Shown here: positions 20,243 through 40,377 of the stretch, one piece after another
How positions within the stretch are numbered: the stretch's first letter is position 1
Layout: each line of letters starts with the position of its first letter
Assembly (NCBI GenBank): GCA_963826785.1
Contig: CAWGYD010000007.1
Coordinates: forward strand, 1-51,217
DNA length: 51,217 nucleotides
Source: an uncultured delta proteobacterium
GTDB taxonomy: Bacteria; Desulfobacterota; Desulfobacteria; Desulfobacterales; Desulfosalsimonadaceae
Direction: 5' to 3'
Made by a program: the position numbers and the translations under genes
The notes under the pieces: model-generated
Told to the model about the DNA's origin: nothing
What the model saw: the letters and a program-made list of their open reading frames with translations, nothing else
The model's database searches: none

Positions 20243-21770
20243 TTAGACCGGCACGCGGCTGATTTTGATTTTGAGCTTTCGCATTTTTGCCCGCAGCGTG
20301 GACGGATTCATCCCTAAAAGTTCGGCGGCCCCTCCCCTTCCTTCGATCCGGCCATTGGCCAGATGCACGCTTTTTTTGATATGGAGGGTGATCATTTCCG
20401 CCATTGTCGGGAAATGATCCGGTTGCCTGAAAGATGCTTCACCCGGCAGATTGCCGGGGCATGCGGACAGGTCCGGAAAGTGAAGCGGTTCGCCCCTGCT
20501 GAGAATCAATGCCCGTTCGATGACATTCTGAAGCTCCCGCACATTTCCCGGCCAGTCATACGTTTTGAGCTGTTCCATGGCGTGGGGGGCAAATTCATGA
20601 GGATAGGGAAGATTCATATCGACAGACTGCCTCGAAGCAAAATATTCGGCAAACTCCGGGATGTCGTCTTTTCTTTCCCGCAAGGGGGGAATGCGGATGG
20701 GGAAAACATTGAGGCGATACCAGAGATCTTTTCGAAATCGCGCGTTTATCACCATGGTTTCAAGGTCCCGGTTGGTGGCCGAAACGATCCGGGTGTTGAC
20801 GGAGATGGTGCGTGTGCCCCCGACCCGGCGCAATTCCATGGACTGGAGGAATCTCAGCAGCTTGACCTGGGCCTGAACCGATAATTCACCGATCTCATCC
20901 ATGAAAACCGTCCCGCCGTCCGCCTGTTCGAAATACCCCCGCTTCATGCCGTCTGCGCCGGTAAAGGCCCCCTTTTCATATCCGAACAGTTCGCTTTCCA
21001 GCAGCGTTTCAGGTATGGCCCCGCAGTTAAAACTGACCAGAGGGCCTTTTGACCGCTTTGAGCGCAGGTGAATGGCATTTGCAATCACTTCCTTGCCCAC
21101 ACCGGTTTCACCCGACAGCAGGATCGGGATATCCAGTTCCGCCACCTGCTGAACACTGTGGATGACCTTCTTCAGGCCCGATTCCGCGCCGATGATCCGA
21201 TACCCCAGTCTTTTTTTGAGTTCCTGGTTTTCGGTGATCAGCCGTTCCCGCTGACTGGTGATTTCCAACTGCGACAGGATATGGCGGATACTTCCGGCAA
21301 CCGGTCCAAACATGTCTTTGATGAACCGGAGGTGTGTTTTCGTATATCGATTTTCTCCCCAGGCCACCAGTCCCGATGACGCCGAAGCGATTCTCATTGA
21401 TCTCGGTTCGGATGATCAGCGTCGAGGCATTTTCACGAATGGCGAAGTAATTGGACACATCAATGGTAATCGGATCGCGTGAGGTATTTGGAATGTTGCT
21501 GATCATCCTTGAACTGATTGCCAGCGCTGATTTGAATCCGGCATCGGAGAGTTTCACCTTCTCATCCACCAGCATCACGCCCTCATCGTTGACCATGGCC
21601 TTGTAATGCAGCCTGCCCTCATTCACATCGAAAATAGGAATATTAAGAAAATCCAGCGGGATATACTTTTTGAAAAAGTTATAGATCTTACTGATCGCAT
21701 TTTCAACGTCCGTACTGGTGATCATTTCAAGTGCGAATTCTTCAACGCGCTCGCTGGCGGGAGAAATCAT
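20243..21770 (-). CDS. Sigma54-dependent enhancer-binding protein (GAF-like, AAA+, HTH), split by one +1 frameshift at 21372-21374
   Basis: ATG 21770 (MISPASERVEE) after an AGGAGA RBS. Removing one G from ATC-GGG-ACT restores ...ENRFGVIGLVAWGENRY.... Motifs [39 protein letters not shown] and HTH GAAELLGMNPSTL. Confidence 0.9.
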
Positions 21771-21816
21771 ATCGCTTCTCCTTCGGGTATGGGGAAAGTG
21801 GATGGGGAAGAGTTGC

Positions 21817-21832
21817 CCGTCAAATATAACGG
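21817..21832. promoter_or_regulatory. Candidate upstream activator site for the bEBP
   Basis: Imperfect palindrome CCGTCAAATATAACGG about 95-110 bp upstream of the -24 box. It resembles the CGTCAATATATTGAC site at 37490. Confidence 0.4.
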
Positions 21833-21923
21833 TTCTTTCAATATTCATAAAGATATTTATTATATTTGGCGGTCCACGCCCTGCAAAAATATGTAACAAC
21901 TTAATTTTACAATTAATTATTTA

Positions 21924-21940
21924 ACGGCATGCCGATTGCA
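21924..21940 (+). promoter_or_regulatory. Sigma54 (-24/-12) promoter of the activator/dehydratase operon
   Basis: CGGCAT-GCCGA-TTGCA: GG at 21926-27 and GC at 21938-39 with exact N10 spacing, AT-rich upstream tract and a divergent bEBP. Confidence 0.8.
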
Positions 21941-21988
21941 TTAAATTTGGCGAATATCTATGCTTTTTATTCATTACGGAGGTTCCAC

Positions 21989-22756
21989 ATGCTCACAGTC
22001 GGATTGGATATTGGCTCGATCACCACGAAAATTGCCGTCATGGAAGACCGCAAACTGCTTTTTACGGATCTTTCCTTCACCGGTTATGATGCCGAAAGGG
22101 CGTGGAAGGACATTTTGGAAAAAACACGGGACCGTCTTCGGCTGAAAAACGGTTCAGTGGACCGGATTGTGTCCACCGGATACGGGCGGAACAATGTGGA
22201 TGTCGCACACAAAAAAATAACGGAAATCATGTGCCACGCTGCAGGTGCCCGGTATTTTCTCCCCAAGACGAAATGTGTCATCGATATCGGCGGACAGGAC
22301 AGCAAATTTATCCGGCTCGCAGAGAACGGCTCGGTTTCAGATTTCGTAATGAATGACAAATGCGCAGCCGGAACCGGCCGCTTTCTCGAAGTCATGGCAA
22401 GGGCTCTGGAACTCAACCTGGCGGATTTCGGAGAACTGTCGCTGATGTCAAAAAAACCATCAAAAATCAGCAGTATGTGTACGGTCTTTGCCGAATCGGA
22501 GATCATTTCGCTGATCTCCAAGGGCGAAACCCGGGAAAACATCATCGCGGGCATCCATGAGTCGATCGCCTCCCGCATGAGTTCCATGATGGGCCGTTCC
22601 GGTATTCTAAAACCAGTGGTCATGACCGGCGGGGTGGCAAAGAACATCGGCATCCGAAATGCCCTTGAAAAAAAGCTCAATTTAAAAATCGAAGTTCCGG
22701 CAACGGCCCAGGTCAACGGTGCCATCGGCGCGGCGATCCTCGCCCAAAACGAATAA
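21989..22756 (+). CDS. ATP-dependent CoA-substrate-specific enzyme activase (HgdC/HadI/BcrA-D ASKHA family)
   Basis: Motifs GLDIGSITTK, STGYGR, EIMCHA, DIGGQDSK, MNDKCAAGTGRFLE, SSMCTVFAESE and TGGVAKN. Start moved to ATG 21989 after a GGAGG RBS. Confidence 0.95.
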   Translation: MLTVGLDIGSITTKIAVMEDRKLLFTDLSFTGYDAERAWKDILEKTRDRLRLKNGSVDRIVSTGYGRNNVDVAHKKITEIMCHAAGARYFLPKTKCVIDIGGQDSKFIRLAENGSVSDFVMNDKCAAGTGRFLEVMARALELNLADFGELSLMSKKPSKISSMCTVFAESEIISLISKGETRENIIAGIHESIASRMSSMMGRSGILKPVVMTGGVAKNIGIRNALEKKLNLKIEVPATAQVNGAIGAAILAQNE

Positions 22757-22777
22757 GGGATTTGAAATCAAGGAGAG

Positions 22778-23815
22778 ATGTTCATGAAAACATTTGCTTA
22801 TTTTGACACGGGTCATGAGTTTCCCGAGGAGATCGTCATGGCAGCGGGCTTTACCCCCTATAAAATCCTGGGGGATATTCACGAATCGACCGATCCCGCG
22901 GACAGCTACGTCCATAATTATATCTGCCCTTTTTCCAGGAGCGCGCTGACCGAAGGGATGGCCCGCTCCGAAGGGTGGGCCGGGATCGCATTCTGCCACG
23001 GATGCGATGTCACCAACAACCAGTACGACATCTGGAAATACCACGTAAAGACCGATTTTCTGTACTGGATCAACACGCCGGCCAACAACAACAATGCGGG
23101 AAGATCGTTCCACAGGCGCGAGCTCCTGCGATTCATCGATCATCTGGAAAAGAAATTCAAATTCCGGATCTCGACAGAGGATCTGGGCAACGCCATACGG
23201 GTTTCAAATACCATCAAAAGTTTGTTGCGAACAATGGCGTCCCTTCGTTCGACAAAAGACATTTCCAATGCTGAATACCACGATGTCATCCGCAAATGCC
23301 TCCAGTCCCCCAGGGCAGAAACGATAACGGAATTAAAAAGCGCTTTGGATGACTGGCGGAAAAGGCCTGCATTCCCGGACGACAAAATTCCCGTTCTGGT
23401 GACGGGTTCGGATATCACATACGGCGAAGCCATGGAGGTGTTTGAAACCGCGGGGCTGAGAATCGTTCGCGATGACATGTCTCTGGGTGAGCGCTACTTT
23501 GCCGAATCCATTTCCGAGGACGGGGATCCGGTCGAAGCGCTGGTGGACTACAACTGCCGTATCCCCCAGCCCCCCACCCGATTGCCGTTCGAAGCGAGAC
23601 TGGACTTTCTGCGCAAATGCCTGAAGGAAACGCCCGTAAAAGGGATCGTGTACCAGATGCTTAAATTCTGCGAACCCCACGCCCTGGATATGCCTTATAT
23701 GACCGACCAGCTCAGAAAGGACGGTTACAAGGTACTGGTCATCGAGCGGGAATACACGCCCACCATGGATCAGCAGTTGGTCAGCCGGCTTGAAACCTTC
23801 AAGGATATGATCTGA
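22778..23815 (+). CDS. 2-hydroxyacyl-CoA dehydratase / benzoyl-CoA reductase family subunit (HgdB/BcrC/BzdN-like)
   Basis: FPEEIVMAAGFTP, three Cys-containing motifs (YICPFSRS, HGCD, LKFCEPH) and C-terminal QLVSRLETFKDMI. Confidence 0.88.
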   Translation: MFMKTFAYFDTGHEFPEEIVMAAGFTPYKILGDIHESTDPADSYVHNYICPFSRSALTEGMARSEGWAGIAFCHGCDVTNNQYDIWKYHVKTDFLYWINTPANNNNAGRSFHRRELLRFIDHLEKKFKFRISTEDLGNAIRVSNTIKSLLRTMASLRSTKDISNAEYHDVIRKCLQSPRAETITELKSALDDWRKRPAFPDDKIPVLVTGSDITYGEAMEVFETAGLRIVRDDMSLGERYFAESISEDGDPVEALVDYNCRIPQPPTRLPFEARLDFLRKCLKETPVKGIVYQMLKFCEPHALDMPYMTDQLRKDGYKVLVIEREYTPTMDQQLVSRLETFKDMI

Positions 23816-23829
23816 TCAGGAGGAAAAAT

Positions 23830-25188
23830 ATGATACGCATAACCAAATTTATCGCTCAGAATCCAAAGCTTTTCATCAACGGCATCAAAGGGTACCTCAA
23901 CCAGCCGCTCACCCCCCGGATGTTTCAGATCATCATGCAGTACATCAACCGGACCAAGCTCATGAAACTCTTCCCCTGGGTCAAAACCGGTTCATTTTCC
24001 GCCGGGTTCCCGGTGGAGTTCGCCCGGGCGTTCGGCATCTTCCCATATTACCCGGAAGCTTACGCGGCATTGACCGGCGCTGCGGAAAGCACGCAGCCCT
24101 CCATTGAACATGCGGAGAGCCTTGGCTACAGCCGGGATTTGTGCAGCTATATGAAAACCAGCATCGGCGCCTCCCGGTTGAACTGGCCGGAAGATTTCGG
24201 CGGAAGCGAGCCGACCGATTATTACTTCTCCGGCAATCTCGTATGCGACACCCACATGAAATGGTTTGAATCCGAGGCCAAGATTTTCGGCAAACCCCAT
24301 TTCGGCCTGGATGTTCCCAGTCTGGTGGCCGGCGAGAGCGAAGAAAGGCTTGAAGAATATATTGATTATGTTGAACAGCAGCTGTGGGACCTGATCAAGT
24401 TTCTGGAAAATGTCACCGGTAAAAAATTCAACGAGAAAAAATTCCTCAAGACCATCGACCGGTCAACGGAGATGAGCCGCCTGTTCATGGACCTCTATGA
24501 ATACCGGAAACGGCACCCCGCCAACCGCTACTTCGAATGGGTGAGACTGTTCATGCTGCCCATGGTCCCCCAGTGGAATGAGAAAGCCGGGGTGAAATTT
24601 TACCGCAAGCACCTGAAGATGGCCCGGAAACGGTACGGAGACAACAAGGTGATCGAATCCGGCCGGGAAAAGTACCGGGTCCTGTGGGAAGGGATCACCA
24701 TCTGGTACAAGGTCGACCTCTACCAGAAAGTGCTGGCCGAAAAGGGGGCCAAAGTGGTGATGGAGCCCTACACCTATTCCTTTGCGGTACGGAAAAAATC
24801 AGGACTTCCGCTCAGGGAAACCCTGCGCCAGGTGGCCAGGGAACTCATGACCATTCCTTTCACGCTCAATCTCGATGAAAGAATTAAATATTTTAACGGT
24901 CTCATTGATGAGTACGACCTCGACGGCATCATCCTGTTTGCCAACCAGAGCTGCCGTCCCAGCAGCACCGGCCTGCTGGATTTGAAGGAGGCGCTTGTCA
25001 GGGAAAGGGGCATTCCGGTGCTGATGCTCAATACCGACCACTGCGACCCCCGGGCTTATGCAGAGGGGCCCATCAACACCCGGATCGACGGGTTTGTAGA
25101 GATGATGGAAAACTATAAGGCAACAAAAAGCCGGCAGCCCAAACAGCCGGCCCAGACCTCGGCAAAGTTGGCGGAAACCGTATATTGA
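23830..25188 (+). CDS. 2-hydroxyacyl-CoA dehydratase / benzoyl-CoA reductase family subunit (HgdA/BcrB/BzdO-like)
   Basis: Motifs PVEFARAFG...YPE, AESLGYSRDLCSY, LVCDTHMKWF, LDVP, RVLWEG, DGIILFANQSCRP, DHCDPR and TRIDGFVE. Confidence 0.9.
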   Translation: MIRITKFIAQNPKLFINGIKGYLNQPLTPRMFQIIMQYINRTKLMKLFPWVKTGSFSAGFPVEFARAFGIFPYYPEAYAALTGAAESTQPSIEHAESLGYSRDLCSYMKTSIGASRLNWPEDFGGSEPTDYYFSGNLVCDTHMKWFESEAKIFGKPHFGLDVPSLVAGESEERLEEYIDYVEQQLWDLIKFLENVTGKKFNEKKFLKTIDRSTEMSRLFMDLYEYRKRHPANRYFEWVRLFMLPMVPQWNEKAGVKFYRKHLKMARKRYGDNKVIESGREKYRVLWEGITIWYKVDLYQKVLAEKGAKVVMEPYTYSFAVRKKSGLPLRETLRQVARELMTIPFTLNLDERIKYFNGLIDEYDLDGIILFANQSCRPSSTGLLDLKEALVRERGIPVLMLNTDHCDPRAYAEGPINTRIDGFVEMMENYKATKSRQPKQPAQTSAKLAETVY

Positions 25189-25295: not shown

Positions 25296-26159
25296 ATGAA
25301 TAACGACCAATTTAGAGGAAAGACCGCCCTGATCAGCGGTGCCGGATCGGGTATCGGGCTGGAACTCGCAAAAAAACTCGGGCAGGAAGGTTCCATTATC
25401 ATTGGAACCGACATCAATTCCGCGCGGGTAGAGAAGATGATGAACATCCTGCAGGATATGGGGATCCGTGCGCATGGATACACAGTGGATCACACGGATG
25501 TTTCCGCAGTCGAGGCGCTTGCGCACAAGATTGAATCGGAAATCGGTCCTGTTGATATTCTATGCTGCAATGCCGGAGTCGGCCATGGCGCAAAAATCGA
25601 CACCATCCCCTTAAAAGAGTGGAAATGGGTAATGGATATCAATCTCTGGGGGGTCATTTACATGATCCACGTTTTCCTTCCCGCCATGATTCAACGCAAG
25701 CAGGGACAGATCCTCATCACGGCGAGCGGCGCCGGGCTTTTCCCCCTTGCCGGCATGGCCCCCTACTGCATGTCCAAATCGGCCCTGGTGACATTGACCA
25801 ATGTCATGCGGATGGAACTGAAGATCCATGATATCAACGTTTCCGCCCTCTGTCCCGGCATTATCAACACCAATATCATCCGGGACGGAATCATCCAGGG
25901 GGAAGACAACAAGACATACGCCCAGAAATTTTATGCCGCCTGGGGAACCCATCCTTCCAAAGTGGCTAAAGCAGCCGTTAAGGGCCTCAAAAGAAACAAG
26001 GGGATCATCATCACGCCCCGATACCAGATCCTGATGAATTACCTGATGTATCGCCTATCGCCGGCATTGATCGTCTGGCTGGGAAGCGCACTGTTCAAAA
26101 GGGGATGGAATTTCATCGGCCCGCTGCTGAAAGAAAAAGATAAAAATGAGGTCAACTGA
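25296..26159 (+). CDS. Short-chain dehydrogenase/reductase (SDR)
   Basis: SGAGSGIG Rossmann motif, CNAGV, catalytic YCMSK and CPGII. Confidence 0.93.
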   Translation: MNNDQFRGKTALISGAGSGIGLELAKKLGQEGSIIIGTDINSARVEKMMNILQDMGIRAHGYTVDHTDVSAVEALAHKIESEIGPVDILCCNAGVGHGAKIDTIPLKEWKWVMDINLWGVIYMIHVFLPAMIQRKQGQILITASGAGLFPLAGMAPYCMSKSALVTLTNVMRMELKIHDINVSALCPGIINTNIIRDGIIQGEDNKTYAQKFYAAWGTHPSKVAKAAVKGLKRNKGIIITPRYQILMNYLMYRLSPALIVWLGSALFKRGWNFIGPLLKEKDKNEVN

Positions 26160-26283: not shown

Positions 26284-26688
26284 TCATTTGGATAATACGC
26301 CCCATCGCGCGAGTTTCAGATACAATGGCTTCATCCAACCTCGCCGGTTCAGCCATGCCGTGAGATTATAATAAAGGTTCGGCGTCAGCCGCTTGTTGAG
26401 CCACAGCATCCTGCCGAAAAACATGGGCACCGCATACAGTTTGTTCTTTGCCACCGCCTGGACGAGTTTTCTGGCGATCCTGTCCGCCTGATAGCCTTTT
26501 TCAAAAGCGGTTTTTGCGACCTCGGATATCCATGGATCGGTGCTTTTCAGGGTTTCCCTGGCTCCGGCATCATTGATATCAACGAGGCCGATCCTCCATC
26601 CCAGTTTGGCAAATTCCAGTGACAACGCCCTTCCCAGGCCGCTTCCCCCGCCGGTGATCACCACTCTCTTGTTCGGAAATCTTTTCAT
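26284..26688 (-). pseudogene. SDR with an in-frame internal deletion (catalytic core missing)
   Basis: 134 aa. The N-terminal VVITGGGSGLG...LVDINDAGARETLK joins directly to a C-terminal-type segment (ADRIARKLVQAVAKNKLY...). No NNAG and no correctly placed catalytic YxxxK. Confidence 0.75.
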
Positions 26689-26853: not shown

Positions 26854-27171
26854 CTACAGGCGTGGCGGCAGCAGCTTTCCCCGATCAATGGTTTTGAAAT
26901 ATCCCGTATATTCATACCCTTTGACAAGAGCAATGGCATCTTCCGGGCATATGGCCATACAGTCACCGCATCCCATGCATTCATTAATATGATTTTCCGG
27001 CATTTTGGACAGTTTGTTTTCAATAACGAGCGCATCCGCCGGACATGCTTTGACACAAAAACCGCAGCCGGAGCATTTCTCATTATCGATCTCCACAATG
27101 CCGTTGTTGATCTGATCCGGATCATCGTAAATCGGTATCCGTCGTTTTTCAGAAAAACTTAAATTTTTCAT
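26854..27171 (-). CDS. 2x[4Fe-4S] dicluster ferredoxin-like protein
   Basis: CSGCGFCVKACP and CMGCGDCMAICP; GGGGAGG RBS. Confidence 0.92.
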   Translation of the reverse strand: MKNLSFSEKRRIPIYDDPDQINNGIVEIDNEKCSGCGFCVKACPADALVIENKLSKMPENHINECMGCGDCMAICPEDAIALVKGYEYTGYFKTIDRGKLLPPRL

Positions 27172-27198: not shown

Positions 27199-27915
27199 TT
27201 AATAATTTATTTTTTTAGAACCATTTTCATACCAGTCCACGGCATGGGTGGCCCGCTTGACCATGCCGTCCGGCTCTCCCACCGGCCATCCAACGGCGAT
27301 GCTTGAAGCGAATTTATACGGATAGGAAATTCCAAAGAATTTTTTCCATTTTAAAACATATTGAAACGCCAGCTTGACAAAACCGACCCAGCAGGTGCCA
27401 AGTCCCATGCTGTGGGCTGCCAATACCATATTTTGTCCGGCAATCCCGCAATCCAGGTCCGGATTGGAAACACCCCGAACATCCTTAAATATCAAGATAA
27501 CCGTCGGCGCGCCGTGAAACAGGCCCAGCTTGCCGTCCGCGATCAATGTGCAGGCGCCAAAGGGGACCGGATGCAAATCGCGAGGCTTCATCTTGATATT
27601 GAATTTTGCAATGGGAAGACGCCATCGTTTTCCGGAAATCCGGTAATCAATCAGGGATTTAAATAGTTTGCAGATCTTGATCGTTGTATCGGTCAGCCCT
27701 TTGATGATTTCAGGTTCCCGAACCACAATAAACTTCCAGGGTTGGCTGTTTCCGGCGGACGGGGCAAACCGGCCAGCTTCGATAATCCGGCTAATCATAA
27801 ATTCCGGGACCTGTTCTTTTTTGTAAAGCCGGACGCTGCGGCGGCTGAGAATAACTTCTTCCGTCGGCGTCCACTCATTTTGCAGTTTTTCAGCGAGTTG
27901 TGTTTGTTTGCCCAT
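27199..27915 (-). CDS. Nitroreductase-family flavoprotein
   Basis: Motifs SRRSVRLY, AGRFAPSAGNSQPWKF and DCGIAGQNMVLAAHSMGLGTCWVG. Start ATG 27915 after GGAGG. Confidence 0.92.
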   Translation of the reverse strand: MGKQTQLAEKLQNEWTPTEEVILSRRSVRLYKKEQVPEFMISRIIEAGRFAPSAGNSQPWKFIVVREPEIIKGLTDTTIKICKLFKSLIDYRISGKRWRLPIAKFNIKMKPRDLHPVPFGACTLIADGKLGLFHGAPTVILIFKDVRGVSNPDLDCGIAGQNMVLAAHSMGLGTCWVGFVKLAFQYVLKWKKFFGISYPYKFASSIAVGWPVGEPDGMVKRATHAVDWYENGSKKINY

Positions 27916-27966: not shown

Positions 27967-28062
27967 TCAATTTACGGACATGGGTTCAGCCGGGAAGCAG
28001 ATACCCGATGCTGCTCCGGTTATAATGCATACCTTGCCGTTATAAATATTCATCCCCATCAT
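27967..28062 (-). pseudogene. 5' remnant of an SDR gene (below the ORF-track cutoff)
   Basis: AGGAAGG RBS, then MMGMNIYNGKVCIITGAASGI (SDR TGxxxGIG start) followed by unrelated sequence and a stop. Confidence 0.7.
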
Positions 28063-28083: not shown

Positions 28084-28470
28084 TTATTTAATCGTATCTA
28101 AAACCTGTTTAAATAAAACAGCAAAAACAAGGTCAACGCAGCCTGCCATAAAGAGCAGCCAGGTAATATCGCCTTTTATCATATAAATAAGGAACAGCAG
28201 GAAAACCAGCATCTTGCCGATTATACCCATTTTAATGATGTCCCGGTTTCTTTCTACATCCTTGCTGATCCAGTAATATCCCAGTCCAAAAATGAATATC
28301 GCCCCTGCTACGATAAAAAACCACAGCATGCTTTCCGGAACTGTAAGGAATAATTCAAGGATATTGACATTGATAAAATACAAACCGACAAATAAAAGAG
28401 CGGCCCCCCAGTTCCATAGCGCGCCAATAAAAAATAAGTTCTTTTGATATGATTCACTCTGTGCCATCAT
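28084..28470 (-). CDS. Small integral membrane protein (about 4 TM helices), unknown function
   Basis: 128 aa with four hydrophobic stretches, AAGGA RBS, AT-rich coding sequence. Confidence 0.8.
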   Translation of the reverse strand: MMAQSESYQKNLFFIGALWNWGAALLFVGLYFINVNILELFLTVPESMLWFFIVAGAIFIFGLGYYWISKDVERNRDIIKMGIIGKMLVFLLFLIYMIKGDITWLLFMAGCVDLVFAVLFKQVLDTIK

Positions 28471-29520: not shown

Positions 29521-29535
29521 TTATCTTCTCCTTAT

Positions 29536-31536: not shown

Positions 31537-31612
31537 GATATCTCCTATTTCTTTTCGCTCATTGTAAAAAGTGGCTGCCATTTTTATGATTGTGTTTAAA
31601 AATTAATATCCT

Positions 31613-32462
31613 CTATCTCTTCTGCAGCTTTTTTAGCCTTTTCCTGTCCAAGCGGTGAAAGAATCTCAACATACGCAGATACCCCATTGGCCAGATTCGA
31701 TAATTCCACCAGAACAACCTGCCGATCTTAGGCACAAAAGCGATGGTTTTCTTTTTGATCACAGCCTTGAGTATTAATTTTGCACAGACATCAGGGGTGA
31801 TGGCGGATAATTTTTCAAACAGGATAGCCAGATAAGAGCTCAACACATTTTCCGAGGTCGTGTTGACCGTTTCGCTATCGGTAAGCAATGGTGTCCGAAT
31901 ATATCCGGGACAGATGATTGTAAGATCGACGCCCGTATCAGCGGCTTCCACCCATAAGCTTTCCGTTAATCCGAACACGGCGTGCTTGGTTCCCACATAG
32001 GATGCTGTAAGGGGAAATGGAAGAACTCCTTCCACGGAAGACAGGTTGATAATATGACCGCTACCCTGTTTGACCATGAGATGGTAGGCGTGATAAGTGC
32101 CGTAGAGAAGGCCGTTTAAATTCACGTCAAGCACCCTGGTCATATGGTCCAAATTAATGTCCCTCACTTCTCCAATTATTACAATTCCAGCGTTGTTAAA
32201 GAGATAATCCAGTTTGCCATACTCGGCCGCCGTGTCTTCAATAATCTTTTTGAAAGCAAATTTATCCGTCACATCCAGTTTAACGGCTTTGACTTTCAGC
32301 CCATTTTTAAGTAGTGCTTCAGTGGCTTTTTCAACCTGTTCAAAATTTATGTCAGCCATGACCACATAGGCTCCTTGCCGGGCCAGTTGATCACAAAGAT
32401 TTCGGCCAATGCCTGAAGCGCTCCCAGTTACAATGGCAGATTTTATCCTTGAAAATGCTCAT
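31613..32462 (-). CDS. SDR oxidoreductase, split by one +1 frameshift at 32441-32444
   Basis: ATG 32462 after AAGGAG. Removing one A from GAT-AAAA-TCT gives MSIFKDKSAIVTGSASGIGRNL...VVMAD, continuing into NNAGI, NLSS, YVGTK and CPGYI. Confidence 0.88.
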
Positions 32463-32571
32463 TGAATCTCCTTTTCCCCCACGGTTTTAATGTTTCTAAA
32501 AATTCCGTGTTTGGCGAAACGTCGCTTGCCGGCTCCTATGATATATACATCGCGCATGATTTAGCTTTTGG

Positions 32572-33930
32572 TTATTTTTCTTCATAAGTTTTTTCAAATG
32601 TCTGCCCTTTGTAATGGCTCCGTTCCAGGCTGCCGGCTTCCGCCCAGAGGATCGCCGGATTGATCTTTAACCGCTTAGTCATTGCAGCGACAATTTCCCC
32701 CTCAAGGGTTTTGAGTTGTTCTCCGGCAAGACCTGCCGCATGTTCAACACGCAATTTTAACGGCGGCACCACGCGGGGCGGTTTTTCATCAAGGACAATG
32801 CGCATTTCACCCGTCACTTTTGGCACAAATTCGTTAATCACCCCTTTGATATGACTGGGATAGACCATTACCCCTTTGACTTTCAGCATGTCGTCTGACC
32901 GCCCAATAACTTTGTACCGGAACCCGGACCGGCCGCAGGGGCAGGGTTCGGTGAATACCTGGTGGATATCGCCCATGCTCTGGCGGACCATGATCCATCC
33001 GTCCCCTTCAAGGGAGGTAAACACCGCTTCCCCTTTGGCGCCGTTTTCCATGGGAATCGGGGCTTTGGTTTCCGGGTCTACCAGTTCGTAATACGCAAGA
33101 TCATCTCCCAGCCAGTGCATGCCCTGGTATTCTTTATGATCACAGGAACATCCGAAACCAGCTCCGGCATCAAAAATTCTGCACCCGTAAGCCGATTCAA
33201 TCTTGGCTTTGACTTCCGGTATCCCCGCGCCCGGTTCACCGCCGCACAATAAGGCCTTAAACCCCAGTTCCTTCACGGTTTTATTCAATAATTTAGGCGA
33301 CTGTTCGATCAGATACTCCGCCAGGGAAGGCGTGCCCACATAGACGTTTCCTTTAAACAGGCCCTGCATCAGCAGTATCCGTTCACTTTTGGCTTCGGCA
33401 CCCACCGGTATCATGGTTGATCCCATTTTTTGCATCCCCATCATCGTGGGGATTCCGGCAATCACCATTGACAAGGCAAAGCAGAACAATACCCGGTCCT
33501 TCGGCCGGATTCCCGCCCGCCAGCCGCCCCGGACCATGACCTCCCCCCAGATATTGTGGATATCGTTATTGGTCATGGGGTAAGGTGTGGGGATGCCGGT
33601 TGTCCCGGTGGTGGTGGCAATATAATCAAGGTCGTCAACTGAGATGGGCATGATCTGATCCAGCGCTTTGATAAAATCGCCGCCGCATTCCATGACCAGT
33701 GCCCGCAGATCTTCCTTGTTAAACAAACCGATCTTGTCCTTGAATTCATCCATGCTGCTAAGAGAATCCGGATCGCATTTACTGCCTTCGATCATTTTGG
33801 CGTAAAATGGCGCATTGGCCTTCAGCCGGTTCAACATTTTTTTCAGTTTTTCAAACTGGACTTTTTCCATCTCCGGGGTATTGAGAAACGGTTCGATATC
33901 CATGTTCCAGTAGGGTCTGTTTTGATCCAT
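32572..33930 (-). CDS. Phenylacetate-CoA ligase (PaaK)-like AMP-forming enzyme, atypical
   Basis: P-loop TTTGTTGIPT, YVGTPS, GGEPG, YELVDPET, CPCGRS and GRSDDMLKVKGVMVYP. Start ATG 33930 (MDQNRPYW). Confidence 0.88.
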   Translation of the reverse strand: MDQNRPYWNMDIEPFLNTPEMEKVQFEKLKKMLNRLKANAPFYAKMIEGSKCDPDSLSSMDEFKDKIGLFNKEDLRALVMECGGDFIKALDQIMPISVDDLDYIATTTGTTGIPTPYPMTNNDIHNIWGEVMVRGGWRAGIRPKDRVLFCFALSMVIAGIPTMMGMQKMGSTMIPVGAEAKSERILLMQGLFKGNVYVGTPSLAEYLIEQSPKLLNKTVKELGFKALLCGGEPGAGIPEVKAKIESAYGCRIFDAGAGFGCSCDHKEYQGMHWLGDDLAYYELVDPETKAPIPMENGAKGEAVFTSLEGDGWIMVRQSMGDIHQVFTEPCPCGRSGFRYKVIGRSDDMLKVKGVMVYPSHIKGVINEFVPKVTGEMRIVLDEKPPRVVPPLKLRVEHAAGLAGEQLKTLEGEIVAAMTKRLKINPAILWAEAGSLERSHYKGQTFEKTYEEK

Positions 33931-33964
33931 CGATTGATAGCCTCTATGATGTGCAATTTTTATG

Positions 33965-34801
33965 TTATTCGGGAATGTCTTCGTCTCCGAACACACCCCG
34001 GTATCTCATGATCTTTTCATAGGCCTTTGCCTGGCAATTCACGTCTTTTTCAACAAAGGTCTCATCGGGCTCCACTTTCAGGAAAGTCGGATCTTCCCAC
34101 CATTTCGGTTTTGTTTTCAGGATGGGATTGCCGCCGCCGGAAAAAGCCATCCACAGTGAGGGACCGCCGGCCATCTGGGTCATCATTTTCTGTTCAAAAC
34201 TCAAAATGTCTTTCCAAGCCTCCCGGTCAAACCACAGATTTTTTCCTGAAGGCCCGACAGGCAGTCCCAGGACCATCGACGCGTCCTCCATGTGTCCCAG
34301 CAGCATGGCAATGGCCCCGATGCTGAACATAATCCGCGCTTCCGCCCGGTGCTGGGCCGCGCACGCGCAGGCAAAATCACAGGCCGTGCCGTAATCGATG
34401 GCCTTCCAGACGCAGCTGGGTCCGTAGCAGCCGACCCCGACCCCTTTGTTCCGGCTGGTGTATTTCGCATACTCGCCGCATGTTTTAAATCCGCAGGCGC
34501 CGCAATCCCAAAGGGCCGGCTGGGTCAGGTCCGCCCCGATCAATAAAACGGGCGGCAATTTCTTTTTATCGGCCAGGCCCTTTAACGCCACCGCGTCATG
34601 AAGCTGAAATGCGGAATTTTCGCCCAATGTCGCCAGCACATCAATGATCGGATAGATATCCTCATCAGTAATAATTTCCGTCATGATCTCAAGACGATGG
34701 GAGACCCCCGGCGCTCTACCCGCCGCCAGAGCGCAGGCCTTTGCGACATCCAGAAGGTGGTCGGCAACAGCATCCTGTCCATTATATACGGCCATGGTCA
34801 T
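33965..34801 (-). CDS. DUF2148-like Fe-S (ferredoxin-motif) protein, paralogue 2
   Basis: VAKACALAAGRAP and DCGACGFKTC...GPSCVWKAIDYGTACDFA match the DUF2148 pattern CGxCGxxxC...GPxC...D(L/Y)G. Overlaps the upstream paralogue by 4 nt (ATGA). Confidence 0.8.
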   Translation of the reverse strand: MTMAVYNGQDAVADHLLDVAKACALAAGRAPGVSHRLEIMTEIITDEDIYPIIDVLATLGENSAFQLHDAVALKGLADKKKLPPVLLIGADLTQPALWDCGACGFKTCGEYAKYTSRNKGVGVGCYGPSCVWKAIDYGTACDFACACAAQHRAEARIMFSIGAIAMLLGHMEDASMVLGLPVGPSGKNLWFDREAWKDILSFEQKMMTQMAGGPSLWMAFSGGGNPILKTKPKWWEDPTFLKVEPDETFVEKDVNCQAKAYEKIMRYRGVFGDEDIPE

Positions 34802-35583
34802 TCCTCCTTTCCGGAATTATCGGGTCTTTTTTTCTTTGCCGGATCAAACGTATGATAAGGATGATTCGGTATCTGCCGGGTAATCGTGGTGATCTTTCGG
34901 ATGCCATCCACCTGTTTGGCCATATTGGTGAGATGATAATTCGGCGGGGTATCCGCATAGGGGTTCTTGGATGCCACCCCCAGGAGAATGCCGACCACGA
35001 TTTCCGAGTTCATGCAGATATCCAGGTTCCTGCCGGCAAGTCCCACCGAATAGCAGGGTTTGGCGTCAATAAAATGATTACCGGCCACCCACAACGCAGA
35101 CCCGACGGCATATCCGAGGTCATGCGCCCGGATCACACAGACCGGACCCCGGATGGCCGTGTCCCGCCGTCTGTCCGTGGCGTCGATAAGTCCGTTAAAA
35201 TGATTCAAGCGCTCATAGACAAAAGAGCAGTTCGGCTCTCCGCCGCACAACCCGCACCCCACATCCATTGGGGTTTCGTGGGCGCGCTTGTTTCCCAGAA
35301 ATACAATCGCATCGCTTTCCCGCACCATTACCGCTTCATATAAAAACGGTTTTTTCAGCCGTTCCGGAACCTGTTCATGGGCCAGGCGTTCCATCTCCCG
35401 GGCGATCAGTTCCAGTTCCTTCTGGCCGTAGGCGATTTCCGCTTCATGGCCGGGAACTCCCCCGGTAAACGGAGCGGTTAATGCGGCATTGACCATCAGC
35501 TTCGCGGCGATCAGTACATTTTCTTTTTTGGCCTGATCCGGCGGCGAATACGGCGGCCATTCATCGATATGGATTCTTGTCAT
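34798..35583 (-). CDS. DUF2148-like Fe-S (ferredoxin-motif) protein, paralogue 1
   Basis: AAKLMVNAALTAP, CGLCGGEPNC...GPVCVIRAHDLGYAVGSA, YSVGLAG and SKNPY; GAGGAGG RBS. Confidence 0.8.
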   Translation of the reverse strand: MTRIHIDEWPPYSPPDQAKKENVLIAAKLMVNAALTAPFTGGVPGHEAEIAYGQKELELIAREMERLAHEQVPERLKKPFLYEAVMVRESDAIVFLGNKRAHETPMDVGCGLCGGEPNCSFVYERLNHFNGLIDATDRRRDTAIRGPVCVIRAHDLGYAVGSALWVAGNHFIDAKPCYSVGLAGRNLDICMNSEIVVGILLGVASKNPYADTPPNYHLTNMAKQVDGIRKITTITRQIPNHPYHTFDPAKKKRPDNSGKEE

Positions 35584-35654
35584 TTTTCCTCCTCGATTTT
35601 AAATGCAATCGGGATAAAACCGGATTCGTGCGGACACCGGTTATTTGTGCCGGG

Positions 35655-36908
35655 TCAGAAATCGAGCGGCGCCCGTGGATAGGTTTCCATCAGGATATGT
35701 CCGCCATGACGGGACAGGGTCTCGTTATTTCCGTCTTCTATCAGCGTAGACCTTGCGTCCCGGAACAGCTTTTCCGTCAGATATTCACGGGTGAGGCCGT
35801 TTCCGCCCAAAAGCTGAATGGCTTCATGTGTATTTTTAAAGGCCATCTCCGTGCACTGGGTTTTTGCAACCAGGGAATATTCGACCAGCGGCGGCGAAAG
35901 GTTTAAATTCAGGTTCATGCCCGCCCGGGCAATTGCCCGTCCGGTCTCGATCCGTGCGAACATGTCGAAAATCCGCTGCTTGGTGGTATAATGTTCAATC
36001 AATGGTTTTCCGCCCTGAACCCGTTCCTTGGTGTAATTCAAGGCTTCGTCGAATGCAGCCCGGGACAGGCCGTTAGACCAGGAAGCCATGCACAGATTGG
36101 CCGCCGCCAGAATAATATCGAAAATCGGTACATAAAAATCCGGGTCGACAAACATGTAGTCTTTGGGGATCCGCACATCATCAAAATAGATTTCCCCCTG
36201 GTTTAAGTCTCTCTGGCCGATCTTCTCCAGCGGTTTTCCCTTGGAGACGCCCGGAAGATCGAGCGGAACGATGCACACCCCGTTGCCGGAAAATCCTTTG
36301 GACGGATCAATCTGCACATGAAGCATGGTGTGGGTGGCGATGGTGCCGCCGGAAACCCACGCGGATTTCTGACCGTTGACCACCCATTCATCACCATCAA
36401 GCTTTGCCCGCACATTTCCTTTCATCTTGGGAGATTCAAAATACTCTTCTCCCACTGCAATCACATCAGACCCGTGCTCGGGCTCGGTGATTCCCCAGCA
36501 CCCCCGAATGCTTCCATCCGTGCAGTCGCAAAACGGTTTCACAAATTTTTCGATCAATTCATCATTGTTGGTCATGCAGATGCAGTAGAAGGGAAAACAG
36601 ACCACGGTGGTCAGAAGCGCAAGACCGAAACTTCCCCATGCCAGCTCCTCGAAGATGATGTTCGTCTGCAGCGGTGAGAGTCCGAGGCCGCCATAATACT
36701 CGGGCAGAAGGATTTTATGATATCCCAGCGAATAGGCTTTTTTCAGAAATGGCCACAAAGGAGAATCCGGTGCGATCCCCTCTTCAGCCGTCATCCGGTC
36801 CAGCAGTTTGGCCACCGGCCGCATTTCCTGTTCCGCAAACTGACGGGCCGCATCCTTCAAGGCAATATCGTCTTCACTCAAATCAAGATTGATGTCGAAA
36901 TATTTCAT
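35655..36908 (-). CDS. Acyl-CoA dehydrogenase
   Basis: Motifs LPEYYGGLG, WGITEPEHGSD, VVNGQKSAWVS, IYFDDVRIP, ERVQGGKPL, AIQLLGGNGLTREY, EKLFRDAR and IEDGNNE. Confidence 0.96.
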   Translation of the reverse strand: MKYFDINLDLSEDDIALKDAARQFAEQEMRPVAKLLDRMTAEEGIAPDSPLWPFLKKAYSLGYHKILLPEYYGGLGLSPLQTNIIFEELAWGSFGLALLTTVVCFPFYCICMTNNDELIEKFVKPFCDCTDGSIRGCWGITEPEHGSDVIAVGEEYFESPKMKGNVRAKLDGDEWVVNGQKSAWVSGGTIATHTMLHVQIDPSKGFSGNGVCIVPLDLPGVSKGKPLEKIGQRDLNQGEIYFDDVRIPKDYMFVDPDFYVPIFDIILAAANLCMASWSNGLSRAAFDEALNYTKERVQGGKPLIEHYTTKQRIFDMFARIETGRAIARAGMNLNLNLSPPLVEYSLVAKTQCTEMAFKNTHEAIQLLGGNGLTREYLTEKLFRDARSTLIEDGNNETLSRHGGHILMETYPRAPLDF

Positions 36909-36926
36909 GAATACCCCCTGTTTGGA

Positions 36927-37319
36927 TTACATCGGTAAATTGAATTTCTTGCAGTATTCCGGATAGAGCGCCTGACCGGGCTTGAGCAGCGGGAGCAGCT
37001 GCAGAACCTTTCCGACCGGTCCTTTTGCCTTGATCTGCCGGGTTGCCAGCGCCTTGGGGATGAACACCTGCTTCAGCCAGAATTTATGAACCGTGTCGCC
37101 ATCCATCTTCATGGTGACCGTTGGCACCTTGGCCCTTGCTTCCTCCTCGAAAACCGGTCCGTTTCCGTCCACGAACATGGTCACCTCCGGATCATCCACC
37201 ACAAACAAAATGCTCATATTGGATGCTTTCAGATTGGGGCCGAATTCGGTTTCGTTGATCATTTTCATCCAGAGTTCACCAAACAATTCGGTTGCGACCT
37301 CTTTTGTAAAAATCGGCAT
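36927..37319 (-). CDS. SCP2 sterol/lipid-carrier domain protein
   Basis: 130 aa with PTVTMKMDGDTVHKFWL...IPKALATRQIKAKGP, an SCP2-like pattern. Start ATG 37319 after AAGGAGG. Confidence 0.8.
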   Translation of the reverse strand: MPIFTKEVATELFGELWMKMINETEFGPNLKASNMSILFVVDDPEVTMFVDGNGPVFEEEARAKVPTVTMKMDGDTVHKFWLKQVFIPKALATRQIKAKGPVGKVLQLLPLLKPGQALYPEYCKKFNLPM

Positions 37320-37380
37320 GACTTCCTCCTTAGTGCATTGAGGTGGGTTGATATTGAACACAGAGAACACTGTTTTACAC

Positions 37381-37397
37381 AGCAAACAATGTGCCAA
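37381..37397 (-). promoter_or_regulatory. Sigma54 (-24/-12) promoter of the long minus-strand catabolic operon
   Basis: The minus strand reads TTGGCAC-ATTGT-TTGCT, a near-perfect TGGCAC-N5-TTGC consensus about 60 bp upstream of the SCP2 start. Confidence 0.9.
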
Positions 37398-37467
37398 GGT
37401 GATCTAAATTATAATGGACTGGTTTTATGATACAATTTAATAACTGAACTTGATCCGGAAATTGAAT

Positions 37468-37505
37468 CGTCAATATAATGCCACTATGGCGTCAATATAT
37501 TGACA
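37468..37505. promoter_or_regulatory. Tandem palindromic upstream activator sites for a bEBP
   Basis: Perfect palindrome GTCAATATATTGAC (37491-37504) plus a degenerate copy GTCAATATAATGCC (37469-37482) 22 bp away, both upstream of the sigma54 promoter. Confidence 0.7.
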
Positions 37506-37563
37506 TCCATGCATAGTCTGTTATGATGCCGGAAGCAAATCACCACAGAAAGGGATCCCGACC

Positions 37564-40377
37564 ATGAAATCAGACCAACCCGCCCGCCCGGGCAATCCTC
37601 TTGTAAATCGAAAACAAGCCGGTTTGAGAGATATCGACATCGCTGAAAAATACCTGCGGGCAGACGATAAAGAACAGGCATGGCATTCCTACAGGCAGGC
37701 TGCAGACCGGCTGTACCCGGCGCTGAAAAGGGATATGGACGCCGAATCTTTCTTTATTTCCGCCGCCCTCCATCTCTCCGGCCTTTCCTTCGCGCTGGGC
37801 AAGGGATTCAAAAATATGGCGAAATACCTTCACCGTGCCCATGAAGCCGCCGCGACACTGGGTGATCGGAGATCCCATGCCATGCTGAACATGCACCTGG
37901 GAAGACTCTATTATTTTTCGGACCGCCGGGCCGACGCCATGGTGGCGCTGTCCATGGGTTTGAGTGAAATCGAAGAGCTGGGAGATGAGGATATCCTCGA
38001 ACAATCCGCCGAGTTTCTGGGGATGTTCTATTTTATGCAGGGCCTGTTCAAGGAAGCCCTGCCTCACCTGGAAAGGGCCGAACGGATACTGATCAAGCAG
38101 GAACGGAATCAGTCCTTCAGTTCCATCGCCCCCATTCTGCTCGGTTACTGCCTGGCCTACCTGGGAGAATTTCACCGTGCCATCGGCACGCTCGATTTCC
38201 ATTGGCGAACGGCAAGAGAAAGTTGTGATCACAATATGGCCATGACCCTGCGGATCATCATGGGGACCGTGCTGATATTGATCAAAAGGGAAAAGGAAGG
38301 CTATTTCCATGTGGATGAAACGATAAAGGAAGCCCGGTTGCAAAAAAATTATCTGGCCGAATACCTGGCTGCCGGACCGGTCGCACTCCGCTTTCTCTCC
38401 ACCGGACATGCCGCCAAAGCCCATGAATACTTAAAAAAGACCTTTGAAAGCGGTCTGGTTACGGGGATCGTCCGCCAATATGCCTCCCCCTGGATATTGG
38501 AAATGATATCCGAATTCGAACGGCTCCGATTTGAACCTATTCTGGGGCTCACCCTTCACCAGGCAATGGAGCGGGCCGTCAATGAAAACAACATTCATCT
38601 TCACGGAACGGCCCTGCGGTTAAAAGCCCTCTATGAACTTGCGGAAAATATGCCGATGGAATCCGTTCTGGCGGATCTGGCGCTAAGTGAAACGCTGCTC
38701 GACAAATCAGGTGACATCATCCAGTCCGCCAAAACCAAAATAGAGATCGCCAGGCTCGAGTTATCCAGGGGGGACCGCAAGGAAGCCGCCCGGAAAGCCA
38801 GGGGGGCCTGGCAAATTCTGGGCGGATACGCCGAACAGTTCTTCCCGGATGATCTGCACCATCTCGTTAATCCGGAGACCCATAACCTCAAGTCGGTTGA
38901 TGCATCACGCGATTCGTTTGAGCGGTACATCAAGCTTACCGAAGCCATGTTCCCGGCAGACAGCGGAGAAGATGTCCTTGCCTGCGCGATTTGTGCCACC
39001 AACCGCTTTTTCGGAGCGGAACGCGGCGGGCTCTTCTGGTTCCCCGGCGGGAAATTCATCAATCCGCCCAAGCTGCGCGCTTCCTGCAATTTAAGCGAAA
39101 AAGACATTATCGGCGAAGATTTCAAACGAAATTATAACCTGATTTTAAAAGCCTTCAAAGAAAACCGCCCCATATGGAAACGGAATCAAACCGGCAAACT
39201 CGATCCATCCGGGCGGCCGGTCAGGTCCATACTGTGTCTTCCGGTGGAAGTCAGGGGGAAGATCCGCGCCGTGATTTATCACGACAACTCGTATCTTGAA
39301 GACTGTTTTGATTTTCTGGATGACAGCACCCTGAAAAAGGTGGCCGATCATGTCAGCCGGCAATCGGCCAGAATTTACGAATATTACCGGCTCCGGGACG
39401 AGCGCAACGAACTGATTACCGAAAAGAGCTTATATGAAACCACTCTGGAAGAAAAAGGCCTGATCTATAAAAGCCGGGACATGGCCGATCTGATTGAGCA
39501 GATAGACCGGGTGTCCAAAACGGATTCAACTATTTTGATTCTCGGCGACACCGGGGTTGGAAAAGAGCTTATGGCCCGGCGCGTCCATACCATGAGCCAC
39601 CGCAGAGAACGCCCTTTTGTGGTCATAGACGCGACAACCATACCTGAAGCACTGTTTGAGAGCGAATTGTTTGGACACGAAAAAGGCGCATTCACCGGTG
39701 CGGACCAGCAGAAAAAAGGGCGGCTGGAACTGGCCGACCGGGGGACATTGTTTATCGATGAAATCGGTGAACTCCCGCTTTCCATACAGGTCAAGCTGCT
39801 TCGCGCGATTCAGGAGCGCAGCTTCATAAGGGTCGGCGGAACCCGCACCATTGTCTCGGATTTTCGATTGATTGCCGCAACCAACCGCGACCTGTCAGAA
39901 GAAGTGTTCGCCCGTCGGTTCCGCCAGGACCTGTACTATCGCTTAAATGTCATTCCATTTACAGTTCCGGCCCTGCGCGAGCGCACCGAAGACATCGTCC
40001 TGCTGGCGAATCATTTTCTAAACCGGTTTGCCAGAAAATATCACCGGCACGATCTTGTGATCGATCCTGAAACCGAAAAGCTGCTGAAGCAATATGATTG
40101 GCCGGGCAATGTCCGGGAACTGGAAAACATCATCGAACGTGCCGTATTGCTGTCTTCAAAAGGAAGACTGAAGGTCGACCTGCCCTTGAACGCGATGATA
40201 AAAGCAGACGAATTCTTTTCCGATACCCCCACCCTCAATGATCTGGAACAGCGCTATATCCGCTACATTCTTCAAAAGACCGGCGGAAAAATAGGAGGCC
40301 CCGGCGGCGCCGGTGAAAAATTGGGGTTGAAACGGACGACACTTATCGCCCGAATGAAAAAACTCGGGATACGGTAA
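37564..40377 (+). CDS. Large sigma54-dependent enhancer-binding protein (helical/TPR-like N-terminus, GAF-like, AAA+, HTH)
   Basis: Motifs [49 protein letters not shown] and HTH LGLKRTTLIARMKKLG. About 440-aa helical repeat-like N-terminus. Confidence 0.93.
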   Translation: MKSDQPARPGNPLVNRKQAGLRDIDIAEKYLRADDKEQAWHSYRQAADRLYPALKRDMDAESFFISAALHLSGLSFALGKGFKNMAKYLHRAHEAAATLGDRRSHAMLNMHLGRLYYFSDRRADAMVALSMGLSEIEELGDEDILEQSAEFLGMFYFMQGLFKEALPHLERAERILIKQERNQSFSSIAPILLGYCLAYLGEFHRAIGTLDFHWRTARESCDHNMAMTLRIIMGTVLILIKREKEGYFHVDETIKEARLQKNYLAEYLAAGPVALRFLSTGHAAKAHEYLKKTFESGLVTGIVRQYASPWILEMISEFERLRFEPILGLTLHQAMERAVNENNIHLHGTALRLKALYELAENMPMESVLADLALSETLLDKSGDIIQSAKTKIEIARLELSRGDRKEAARKARGAWQILGGYAEQFFPDDLHHLVNPETHNLKSVDASRDSFERYIKLTEAMFPADSGEDVLACAICATNRFFGAERGGLFWFPGGKFINPPKLRASCNLSEKDIIGEDFKRNYNLILKAFKENRPIWKRNQTGKLDPSGRPVRSILCLPVEVRGKIRAVIYHDNSYLEDCFDFLDDSTLKKVADHVSRQSARIYEYYRLRDERNELITEKSLYETTLEEKGLIYKSRDMADLIEQIDRVSKTDSTILILGDTGVGKELMARRVHTMSHRRERPFVVIDATTIPEALFESELFGHEKGAFTGADQQKKGRLELADRGTLFIDEIGELPLSIQVKLLRAIQERSFIRVGGTRTIVSDFRLIAATNRDLSEEVFARRFRQDLYYRLNVIPFTVPALRERTEDIVLLANHFLNRFARKYHRHDLVIDPETEKLLKQYDWPGNVRELENIIERAVLLSSKGRLKVDLPLNAMIKADEFFSDTPTLNDLEQRYIRYILQKTGGKIGGPGGAGEKLGLKRTTLIARMKKLGIR

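Follow-up and report, generated by a model that had tools for sequence, protein, structure and literature searches.

Whether two neighbouring catabolic operons serve one pathway or two is the question raised by positions 20,243 to 40,377 of a 51,217-nucleotide stretch of DNA from an uncultured delta proteobacterium of the Desulfosalsimonadaceae (contig CAWGYD010000007.1, assembly GCA_963826785.1), referred to here in its full length as the window. The operons occupy an island of approximately 21 kb at a tRNA-Thr(CGT) gene. ORF calling and family scans bear out the layout and gene list of an initial annotation made from the letters alone: the block consists of a pair of operons that converge, with a sigma54 site for each and an enhancer-binding protein encoded divergently from it. 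The left operon (+ strand) encodes an activator (PF01869), two HGD-D subunits (PF06050; beta, then alpha) and a short-chain dehydrogenase (SDR1). The right operon (− strand) begins with an SCP2-like protein, an acyl-CoA dehydrogenase (ACAD), DUF2148a, DUF2148b, a PaaK-like ligase, SDR2 and an SCP2-type thiolase, and continues with EtfB, EtfA, a protein with four transmembrane helices, a nitroreductase, a 2x[4Fe-4S] ferredoxin and an SDR fragment. We put at about 0.5 the probability that the island joins two modules which likely degrade a hydrophobic acid with a substituent on or close to C2, with a 2-hydroxyacyl-CoA dehydratase (HAD) as an optional entrance. Such an island would probably let the cell use a greasy acid beyond the reach of ordinary beta-oxidation; we infer every reaction, the substrate and the co-induction of the operons.

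In the proposed route the PaaK-like ligase would form the CoA ester, with SCP2 as its carrier, and the Asp-type ACAD would convert this to the 2-enoyl-CoA and pass electrons to EtfAB. DUF2148a and DUF2148b, a predicted Fe-S heterodimer, would act with an SDR and probably with a crotonase from elsewhere in the genome to reach the 3-oxo level, and the SCP2-type thiolase would cleave the 3-oxo product. The left module would be an optional side entrance, in which the activator, reduced by ferredoxin, injects one electron into the alpha/beta enzyme; by a ketyl-radical route, this would take water out of an (R)-2-hydroxyacyl-CoA and supply 2-enoyl-CoA to the same spiral.

The left operon: dehydratase or reductase

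The first gene of the left operon encodes an ATP-dependent activator of the HgdC/HadI type (21989..22756, +), a single gene of 255 residues whose true start is at 21989. It is followed by the beta (accessory) subunit of the HAD/benzoyl-CoA reductase (BCR) family (22778..23815, +), with cluster cysteines at 50, 76 and 298, the alpha (catalytic) subunit (23830..25188, +), with Glu76, Cys105/139/375 and His142, and SDR1, which is intact by family scan (25296..26159, +). For these subunits the initial annotation had left ketyl-radical dehydration and dearomatisation side by side. In NCBIfam the activator scores above the cut-off for TIGR00241 and below it for BzdQ, BcrA and BcrD, and it contains two cluster cysteines, Cys125 and Cys164. 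A single activator gene is likewise present in 14 of the 15 loci of the clade, the remaining locus being truncated, while tandem ATPase pairs stand beside other HGD-D clusters (L049, L144); the genomes compared here and below are samples and kin, and the counts carry no statistic. In the excerpts available of the published work, HADs are described as relying on a homodimer for activation, encoded by one gene and carrying two cluster cysteines (PMC8473912), and class I reductases on a two-subunit ATPase pair (PMC11971306; PMC7317905).

Alpha and beta each have three cysteines for one [4Fe-4S] cluster, as in HADs. An excerpt of PMC11971306 gives the ligands of the double cubane [8Fe-9S] cluster of BzdN as Cys36/73/100/263/293/327, and one cluster per subunit for HADs. 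The beta subunit retains only the equivalents of Cys 73, 100 and 327, and positions 36, 263 and 293 are non-Cys, both here and in 9/9 orthologues. We considered and rejected the missing double cubane as an exclusion of all class I reductases: MbdN is likewise without Cys at 263 and 293, the two distal positions within its alignment, so the absence excludes the BZD and DCCP types and not the MBR type.

By sequence, the best PDB match of alpha is HadB (E 1e-38 versus 6e-28 and 1e-25), and its structural model also matches HadB best (TMt 0.86, rmsd 3.4, versus 0.77-0.79, rmsd 4.1-5.3). The curated orthology cut-offs of NCBIfam are not reached (HadB 162 of 750 bits, HadC 99 of 700 bits). A quick tree, built without characterised references and leaving out fragments of <300 aligned residues, rows of >560 residues and rows with X, places alpha in a separate clade that comprises 12 rows (SH-aLRT 99). 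The single activator and the match to HadB weaken the reductase option and, to judge from sequence and models, the left module most likely works as a HAD that is not an orthologue of any characterised one. By analogy it would likely remove water from an (R)-2-hydroxyacyl-CoA. The dehydration half of the earlier proposal is thus favoured and the dearomatising half has lost ground.

The nearest characterised system is (R)-2-hydroxyisocaproyl-CoA dehydratase, HadBC/HadI (PDB 3O3M; Hgd/Fld family), with which the left module shares a single ASKHA activator, three cluster cysteines per subunit, the conserved active-site Glu and the best sequence and model match. It differs in its low identity (~28%), in a His at Cys+3 of alpha, in having an ATP-dependent ligase where HadBC is accompanied by a CoA-transferase, and in its thiolase and SCP2 neighbours; this last setting suggests that the HAD is used oxidatively. 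With the class I enzymes BzdNOPQ (8S02) and MbdONPQ (9G87) it shares the subunit families, the catalytic Glu and the His of BzdO, but it has no second ATPase subunit, no BzdN [8Fe-9S] ligands and a lower structural match, and the block contains no downstream ring-cleavage genes.

Other HAD operons (L045:6029-11838, L051, L053 and L148) contain varying subsets of an alpha/beta hydrolase, SDRs, glyoxalase-family and CMD-family proteins, a membrane-anchored protein and a 441-residue Cys-rich protein without a Pfam match. A sister HAD clade (44-50%) is found among housekeeping genes (L046:9081-13714, L047:6793-11266), where a FabH-like gene, read from the other strand, separates alpha from the activator (Pfam-checked in L046).

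The right operon and its DUF2148 pair

The right operon encodes an SCP2-type thiolase (30286..31536, −). Thiolases of SCP2 type 1 are marked by an N-terminal catalytic Cys, by HD-type and GHP loops and by the lack of an OB-fold partner; the protein encoded here has a catalytic-type Cys85, HDAT and GHP motifs, and no gene for an OB-fold thiolase partner was found within the block. SCP2-thiolase type 1, or SCPx, belongs to branched-chain beta-oxidation. This type is the best PDB match (E 4e-63), and the operon resembles SCPx (PDB 6HSJ) in thiolase type and motifs, in having SCP2 in the same operon and in offering an SDR as candidate hydroxyacyl-CoA dehydrogenase. It differs in that SCP2 is a separate gene, an ACAD with Etf takes the place of the oxidase, there is no MaoC hydratase, and the DUF2148 pair is added. 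The stand-alone SCP2-like lipid carrier (36927..37319, −; 130 residues) has no Pfam match, leaving its earlier assignment to rest on Atlas SCP2 clusters (0.94-0.95). EtfB (29536-30282, −) and EtfA (28561-29520, −) were assigned by family scan.

The ACAD (35655..36908, −) aligns with Asp392 at the position of the usual catalytic Glu: IEDG stands where short-chain ACADs have IYEG, and the canonical Glu of the C-terminal YEG motif, as in MCAD and SCAD, is absent. The Asp (IEDG or IADG) is kept throughout the 23 site-covering rows of ≥51% identity, some of which are the same gene twice. The best PDB matches are ordinary short/medium-chain ACADs. According to an excerpt of PMC11342911, ACAD10 uses Asp at the equivalent position, and ACAD10, ACAD11 and LvaC are Asp-base acyl-CoA dehydrogenases for 4-hydroxy acids. 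The likeness to these enzymes, as far as that excerpt describes them, lies in this position; the block differs from them in having no kinase gene and in having Etf.

The ligase (32572..33930, −), of an uncharacterised family by family scan and PDB search, matches 2-hydroxyisobutyryl-CoA synthetase best (E 6e-41) and then PaaK (E 8e-36). The proximity to a 2-hydroxy-acid ligase lends weak support to a 2-hydroxy substrate; the matches appear too distant to name one. Against the PaaK equivalog of NCBIfam it scores 136 of 646 bits, below the cut-off. The pocket loop that comes after its A5-type motif is short and without the Glu in the 14 rows at ≥49% identity; a search gave 1853 relatives at E≤1e-40. 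No member of the block reaches the NCBIfam cut-off of the characterised HAD, BCR, PaaK or ACAD equivalogs, in agreement with the original view of an uncharacterised CoA pathway.

DUF2148a (34798..35583, −) is modelled with a pLDDT of 82. All 50 VIA rows, and all matches listed by Foldseek, are of nitroreductase fold, the best VIA match having Z 14.1 and rmsd 3.3 over 151 residues; a PDB search by sequence gave nothing at E<0.04. The model predicts for DUF2148a a nitroreductase fold into which a 4-Cys Fe-S site is inserted, and homology (HHalign 99.4%) extends the predicted fold to DUF2148b (33965..34801, −). Cys110/113/119/149 of DUF2148a are invariant, and in both paralogues the four invariant cysteines would fit an electron-transfer [4Fe-4S] site. 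Matches across the nitroreductase superfamily (3GFA; iodotyrosine deiodinase, 5KO7; the C-domain of FbiB, 4XOM) reach Z 12-14 over 127-152 residues, but DUF2148a differs in its low identity (12-16%), its Fe-S insertion, the lack of an RRS-type motif and its occurrence as one of two fixed paralogues. Nitroreductases bind FMN at a dimer interface; the TAP/RAP turn of DUF2148 aligns to the nitroreductase APS/APN motif, an alignment that is not significant. DUF2148a and DUF2148b would putatively form a heterodimer with bound flavin. We would go further only tentatively, and think it unlikely that the pair is a new beta-oxidation flavin/Fe-S oxidoreductase that dispenses with the hydratase/NAD-dehydrogenase pair, oxidising enoyl-CoA or hydroxyacyl-CoA as far as the 3-oxo stage, and that together with the Asp-type ACAD and a radical dehydratase of a new clade working oxidatively it makes up an anaerobic pathway, so far undescribed, by which lipids with a 2-hydroxy or other C2 substituent are degraded in sediments. 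The searchable literature contains no paper naming DUF2148, PF09918, COG4739 or IPR019224, nor its ferredoxin-like product with thiolase and ligase. On plasmids, only short single DUF2148 genes were found (3 records).

The right module is well conserved as a unit. We compared 16 close DUF2148 loci (15 plus L115), several of them short contigs, counting L054 and L142 once as the same DNA (99.9%) and taking G872:C23, of equal length and DUF2148a identity, as the record of L008. DUF2148b follows DUF2148a in all 16; SCP2 and ACAD are each present in 15, the thiolase in 13 and a ligase in 12 (PaaK-like in 8 and CaiC-like in 4). A crotonase of the L008 family occurs in 3/16, a tally for one query family that misses others, such as that of L001. 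Homologues of the four-helix membrane protein occur in 4/16. The 23 more distant loci retain the DUF2148 pair in 22 cases, a thiolase in 15 and a PaaK-like ligase in 10; from the 95 of 130 candidate ORFs scanned, their companions include OB-fold thiolase partners, MMPL and BNR-repeat proteins, old yellow enzymes and aldehyde oxidoreductases, with a MaoC hydratase and a 3-hydroxyacyl-CoA dehydrogenase once each. This company places the DUF2148 pair in ligase-thiolase pathways, usually without an adjacent hydratase. Long-form DUF2148a occurs in 16/400 other genomes of the phylum, and EtfAB in relatives is found together with a membrane Fe-S oxidoreductase. Within the block no crotonase was found by family scan of its ORFs, as had been noted; an enoyl-CoA hydratase at window 5172-6137 stands 14 kb to the left, outside the island. 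A literature search gave no title or abstract that describes this gene combination, nor an Archaeoglobus precedent leading from phenyllactate into beta-oxidation, on which we accordingly do not rely; and no cluster matched in the portions available of a phenanthrene paper (PMC13365417) and a benzene paper (PMC13416013).

The host genome carries a paralogous operon, L001 (G000:C3:176000-196000), with bEBP2, SCP2, a CaiC-like ligase, DUF2148a/b (50%/36%), ACAD, thiolase, EtfA, a 680-residue membrane Fe-S oxidoreductase, EtfB, SDR, old yellow enzyme, USP and crotonase. Operons of this type are common in the host family, and L001 could supply steps absent from the island. A third cluster, L002 (G000:C6:438000-446000), has no DUF pair and contains a split thiolase, TetR, a nitroreductase (55%), a ferredoxin, a CaiC-like ligase, an SDR and two ACADs. 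The DUF2148-pair operon at L129:6528-17118 has behind it a gene resembling archaeal-type HMG-CoA synthase, another thiolase gene and one of the HpaB/4-hydroxybutyryl-CoA-dehydratase family.

Coupling of the two modules and alternative readings

As a rule the two modules are found apart. Close orthologues of the HAD are uncommon, occurring in 2/400 other genomes of the phylum (50-53%), 4/350 of the order and 2/122 of the class of genome G401, and in 7/34 metagenome loci at ≥72%. Co-location elsewhere had been set beforehand as a test of the link, and it is seen. In G401, which belongs to another class, both operons and both regulators lie side by side in a different arrangement. In the metagenome contig L055 a single run reads activator, beta, alpha, ligase (81%), thiolase (75%), nitroreductase (89%) and ferredoxin (74%), and its alpha is the nearest tree neighbour of the alpha studied here. 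In L051 the HAD adjoins a bEBP2-thiolase operon without the DUF pair, and in G850 it is 43 kb from a paralogous DUF operon. Three further genomes (G547, G424, G587) have the HAD followed by a crotonase and an SDR, and the crotonase of HAD loci without DUF is 57-62% identical to that in the DUF operon L008. Such an arrangement would suit a dehydration step with ordinary hydration and oxidation after it, and with it the oxidative direction proposed above. It also means, contrary to the first suggestion, that the HAD is no general substitute for a hydratase: 15/16 close DUF loci do not have the radical enzyme nearby, and HAD-only loci own a crotonase. HAD-DUF coupling is plausible, and not obligatory; these counts do not support the idea of a self-contained, single obligatory pathway.

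Several observations weigh against a joint pathway of the kind proposed. A close HAD orthologue is present in just 2 of 13 genomes with a close DUF operon, adjacent in one of them; by locus, the HAD is adjacent in 1/16 close DUF loci and in 0/23 distant ones at ≥40% identity. Of 6 further genomes with the HAD (≥67%), 3 gave no DUF2148a match, one of these 3 being 65% complete. The modules are regulated by separate proteins, cargo without any relation can build up at tRNA sites, and in the copy studied two SDRs and a thiolase are lost or damaged. PaaK-like ligases usually act on aryl acids, and His142 of alpha, at Cys+3, occupies the position of the active-site His131 of BzdO and is absent from HadB. 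Nitroreductases carry an N-terminal RRS-type phosphate motif that the DUF2148 family consensus does not have. All matches to characterised enzymes are <35% identical.

In an alternative that we take seriously while holding it to be somewhat unlikely, the modules are independent cargo at the same tRNA-Thr site, with different substrates and with the HAD feeding the general beta-oxidation enzymes of the genome. Separate promoters and regulators, the convergent orientation, the scarcity of adjacent HAD genes, the HAD genomes without a DUF2148a match and the mosaic make-up of the right operon itself are all in its favour. It has more difficulty with the separate co-location in another class, with the operon-level merger in L055 and with the accessory genes common to both kinds of locus (crotonase, membrane protein, nitroreductase and ferredoxin); a similar GTCAA-AT motif upstream of both promoters adds weakly to these, the half-site having 10 copies in the window.

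The remaining alternatives concern the chemistry. We think it improbable that the left module uses ATP to reduce an aryl- or dienoyl-CoA, in the manner of a class I benzoyl-CoA reductase, and that the block degrades an aromatic or cyclic acid. The PaaK-like ligase and the ferredoxin in the block would suit this reading, as would the BzdO-like His, found in all 11 alpha rows at ≥44% identity; MbdO has Phe there, so that the residue does not discriminate; a single-cubane beta is also compatible, MbdN being without two distal Cys in the part covered by the alignment. Against this, the block has one ATPase gene where the excerpts of PMC11971306 and PMC7317905 describe BzdPQ and BcrAD pairs, the double-cubane ligands of BzdN are missing, alpha is closer to HadB, and no dienoyl-CoA hydratase or ring hydrolase is present in the block. 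A reductive branch like that of clostridial Had/Fld, in which an SDR makes the (R)-2-hydroxy acid, the HAD dehydrates its CoA ester and ACAD-Etf is the electron sink, would accord with the known physiology of HADs, as an excerpt of PMC8473912 describes it, and with the presence of HAD, SDR, ACAD and EtfAB. We think it very unlikely: with a thiolase, a ligase that depends on ATP and SCP2, the block looks catabolic and made for shortening chains, EtfAB accompanies a membrane Fe-S oxidoreductase in relatives, and ACAD and Etf lie apart from the HAD in most HAD loci.

New here are the finding of two modules on a single island, the evidence that they are partly coupled and the comparison of a HAD with a reductase assignment. 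Uncultured Desulfobacterota and Chloroflexota carry the operon family widely. Degradation of a C2-substituted hydrophobic acid, if true, would explain how hydroxylated or branched lipids are recycled anaerobically without oxygen-dependent alpha-oxidation, and the locus offers three leads: the fold and cofactor hypothesis for DUF2148, an Asp-base ACAD subfamily, and a HAD clade that seemingly feeds oxidation rather than fermentation.

Insertion at tRNA-Thr, regulation and gene damage

The initial annotation overlooked that the block has been inserted at tRNA-Thr(CGT). The tRNA gene (19840..19915, +; ARAGORN) forms the left island edge and is the likely insertion site. It follows mfd in 7/7 family relatives, and in five of these it is directly followed by ihf and two-component genes, the same genes that stand to the right of the block in the window, so that these five show the empty site; of the other two relatives, one has two small genes after tRNA-Thr and one has other genes. 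The island edges coincide with the two-operon block, and host sequence resumes at ~40746 in 3 of 6 relatives compared. No att repeat or integrase was found at the island. GC content is 0.505, between 0.549 in the left flank and 0.472 in the right, and is of little diagnostic value. Among 25 host-family genomes a close DUF2148a occurs in 1 and long-form DUF2148a of any kind in 14, with an alpha-subunit orthologue in none; the closest named records are metagenome-assembled genomes of Desulfobacterales, Desulfobacteraceae and Desulfomonilia. The right operon is a mosaic, DNA of 30290-33920 being 93% identical to L009 and that of 33964-37320 87% identical to L007.

The regulators bEBP1 (20243..21770, −; its N-terminal part in another frame) and bEBP2 (37564..40377, +; 937 residues, with a large N-terminal region without family match) diverge at opposite block ends, and both carry the GAFTGA motif. 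A divergent bEBP2 orthologue stands at 12/16 close DUF2148 loci. The right -24/-12 element (37381..37397, −) matches 12/13 consensus positions, the only site in the window to score that high, and a site of ≥10/13 occurs in 11/18 orthologous upstream regions. The left element (21924..21940, +) scores 10/13, a value reached by 8 sites in the window; in 4/4 orthologous promoters its counterpart by alignment is a TGGCA..TTGA element, where the -12 part reads GA. The sigma54 promoters and divergent activators first proposed are thus upheld, with conservation of both sites in orthologues, that of the left one being positional. Similar inverted motifs, GTCAA-AT...AT-TTGAC, lie in both promoter regions (window 21819-21875 and 37469-37505) and are partly conserved in orthologues; as candidate activator binding sites, they could allow cross-regulation.

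Gene damage in the block had escaped the initial annotation. Two genes contain one-base frameshifts, each in a short base run. In bEBP1 the shift is near 21370, and an intact 514-residue orthologue in G401 maps onto the two frames (66% and 34%). In SDR2 (31613..32462, −) it is near 32441, after codon 7, and the L009 copy is intact and 99% identical over the last 250 residues. Across 98 kb of the host genome, 9 of 83 probed gene places show frame changes, at least one being a tandem-gene artefact; this rate predicts about two per 20 kb, so both may be assembly errors, and we rejected the reading of bEBP1 and SDR2 as pseudogenes. SDR3 (26284..26688, −) is a pseudogene with an in-frame internal deletion of ~140 residues: orthologue residues 1-48 and 189-283 abut and 49-188 are lost, a real deletion. 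N-terminal stubs remain of a lost thiolase (32459..32557, −), common to L009, and of a lost SDR (27967..28062, −), both recognised by sequence comparison.

The promoter-distal part of the right operon encodes the small four-helix membrane protein (28084..28470, −; hydropathy, no family match), the nitroreductase (27199..27915, −), with canonical RRSVR and APSxGN motifs, and the 2x[4Fe-4S] ferredoxin (26854..27171, −). The last two are fused in three relatives (L012, L014, L020) and for this reason likely act as one working unit. Near the right island edge lies a short, putative helix-turn-helix-like relic, recognised by eye (40469..40612, +). Outside the island, a SurA-like ORF at window 15099-15848 covers no more than the latter half of the SurA N-domain, a sign that a further frameshift may lie upstream, and tRNA-Ala and tRNA-Ile genes at window 49301-49462, soon after which the contig ends, are probably the spacer of an rRNA operon.

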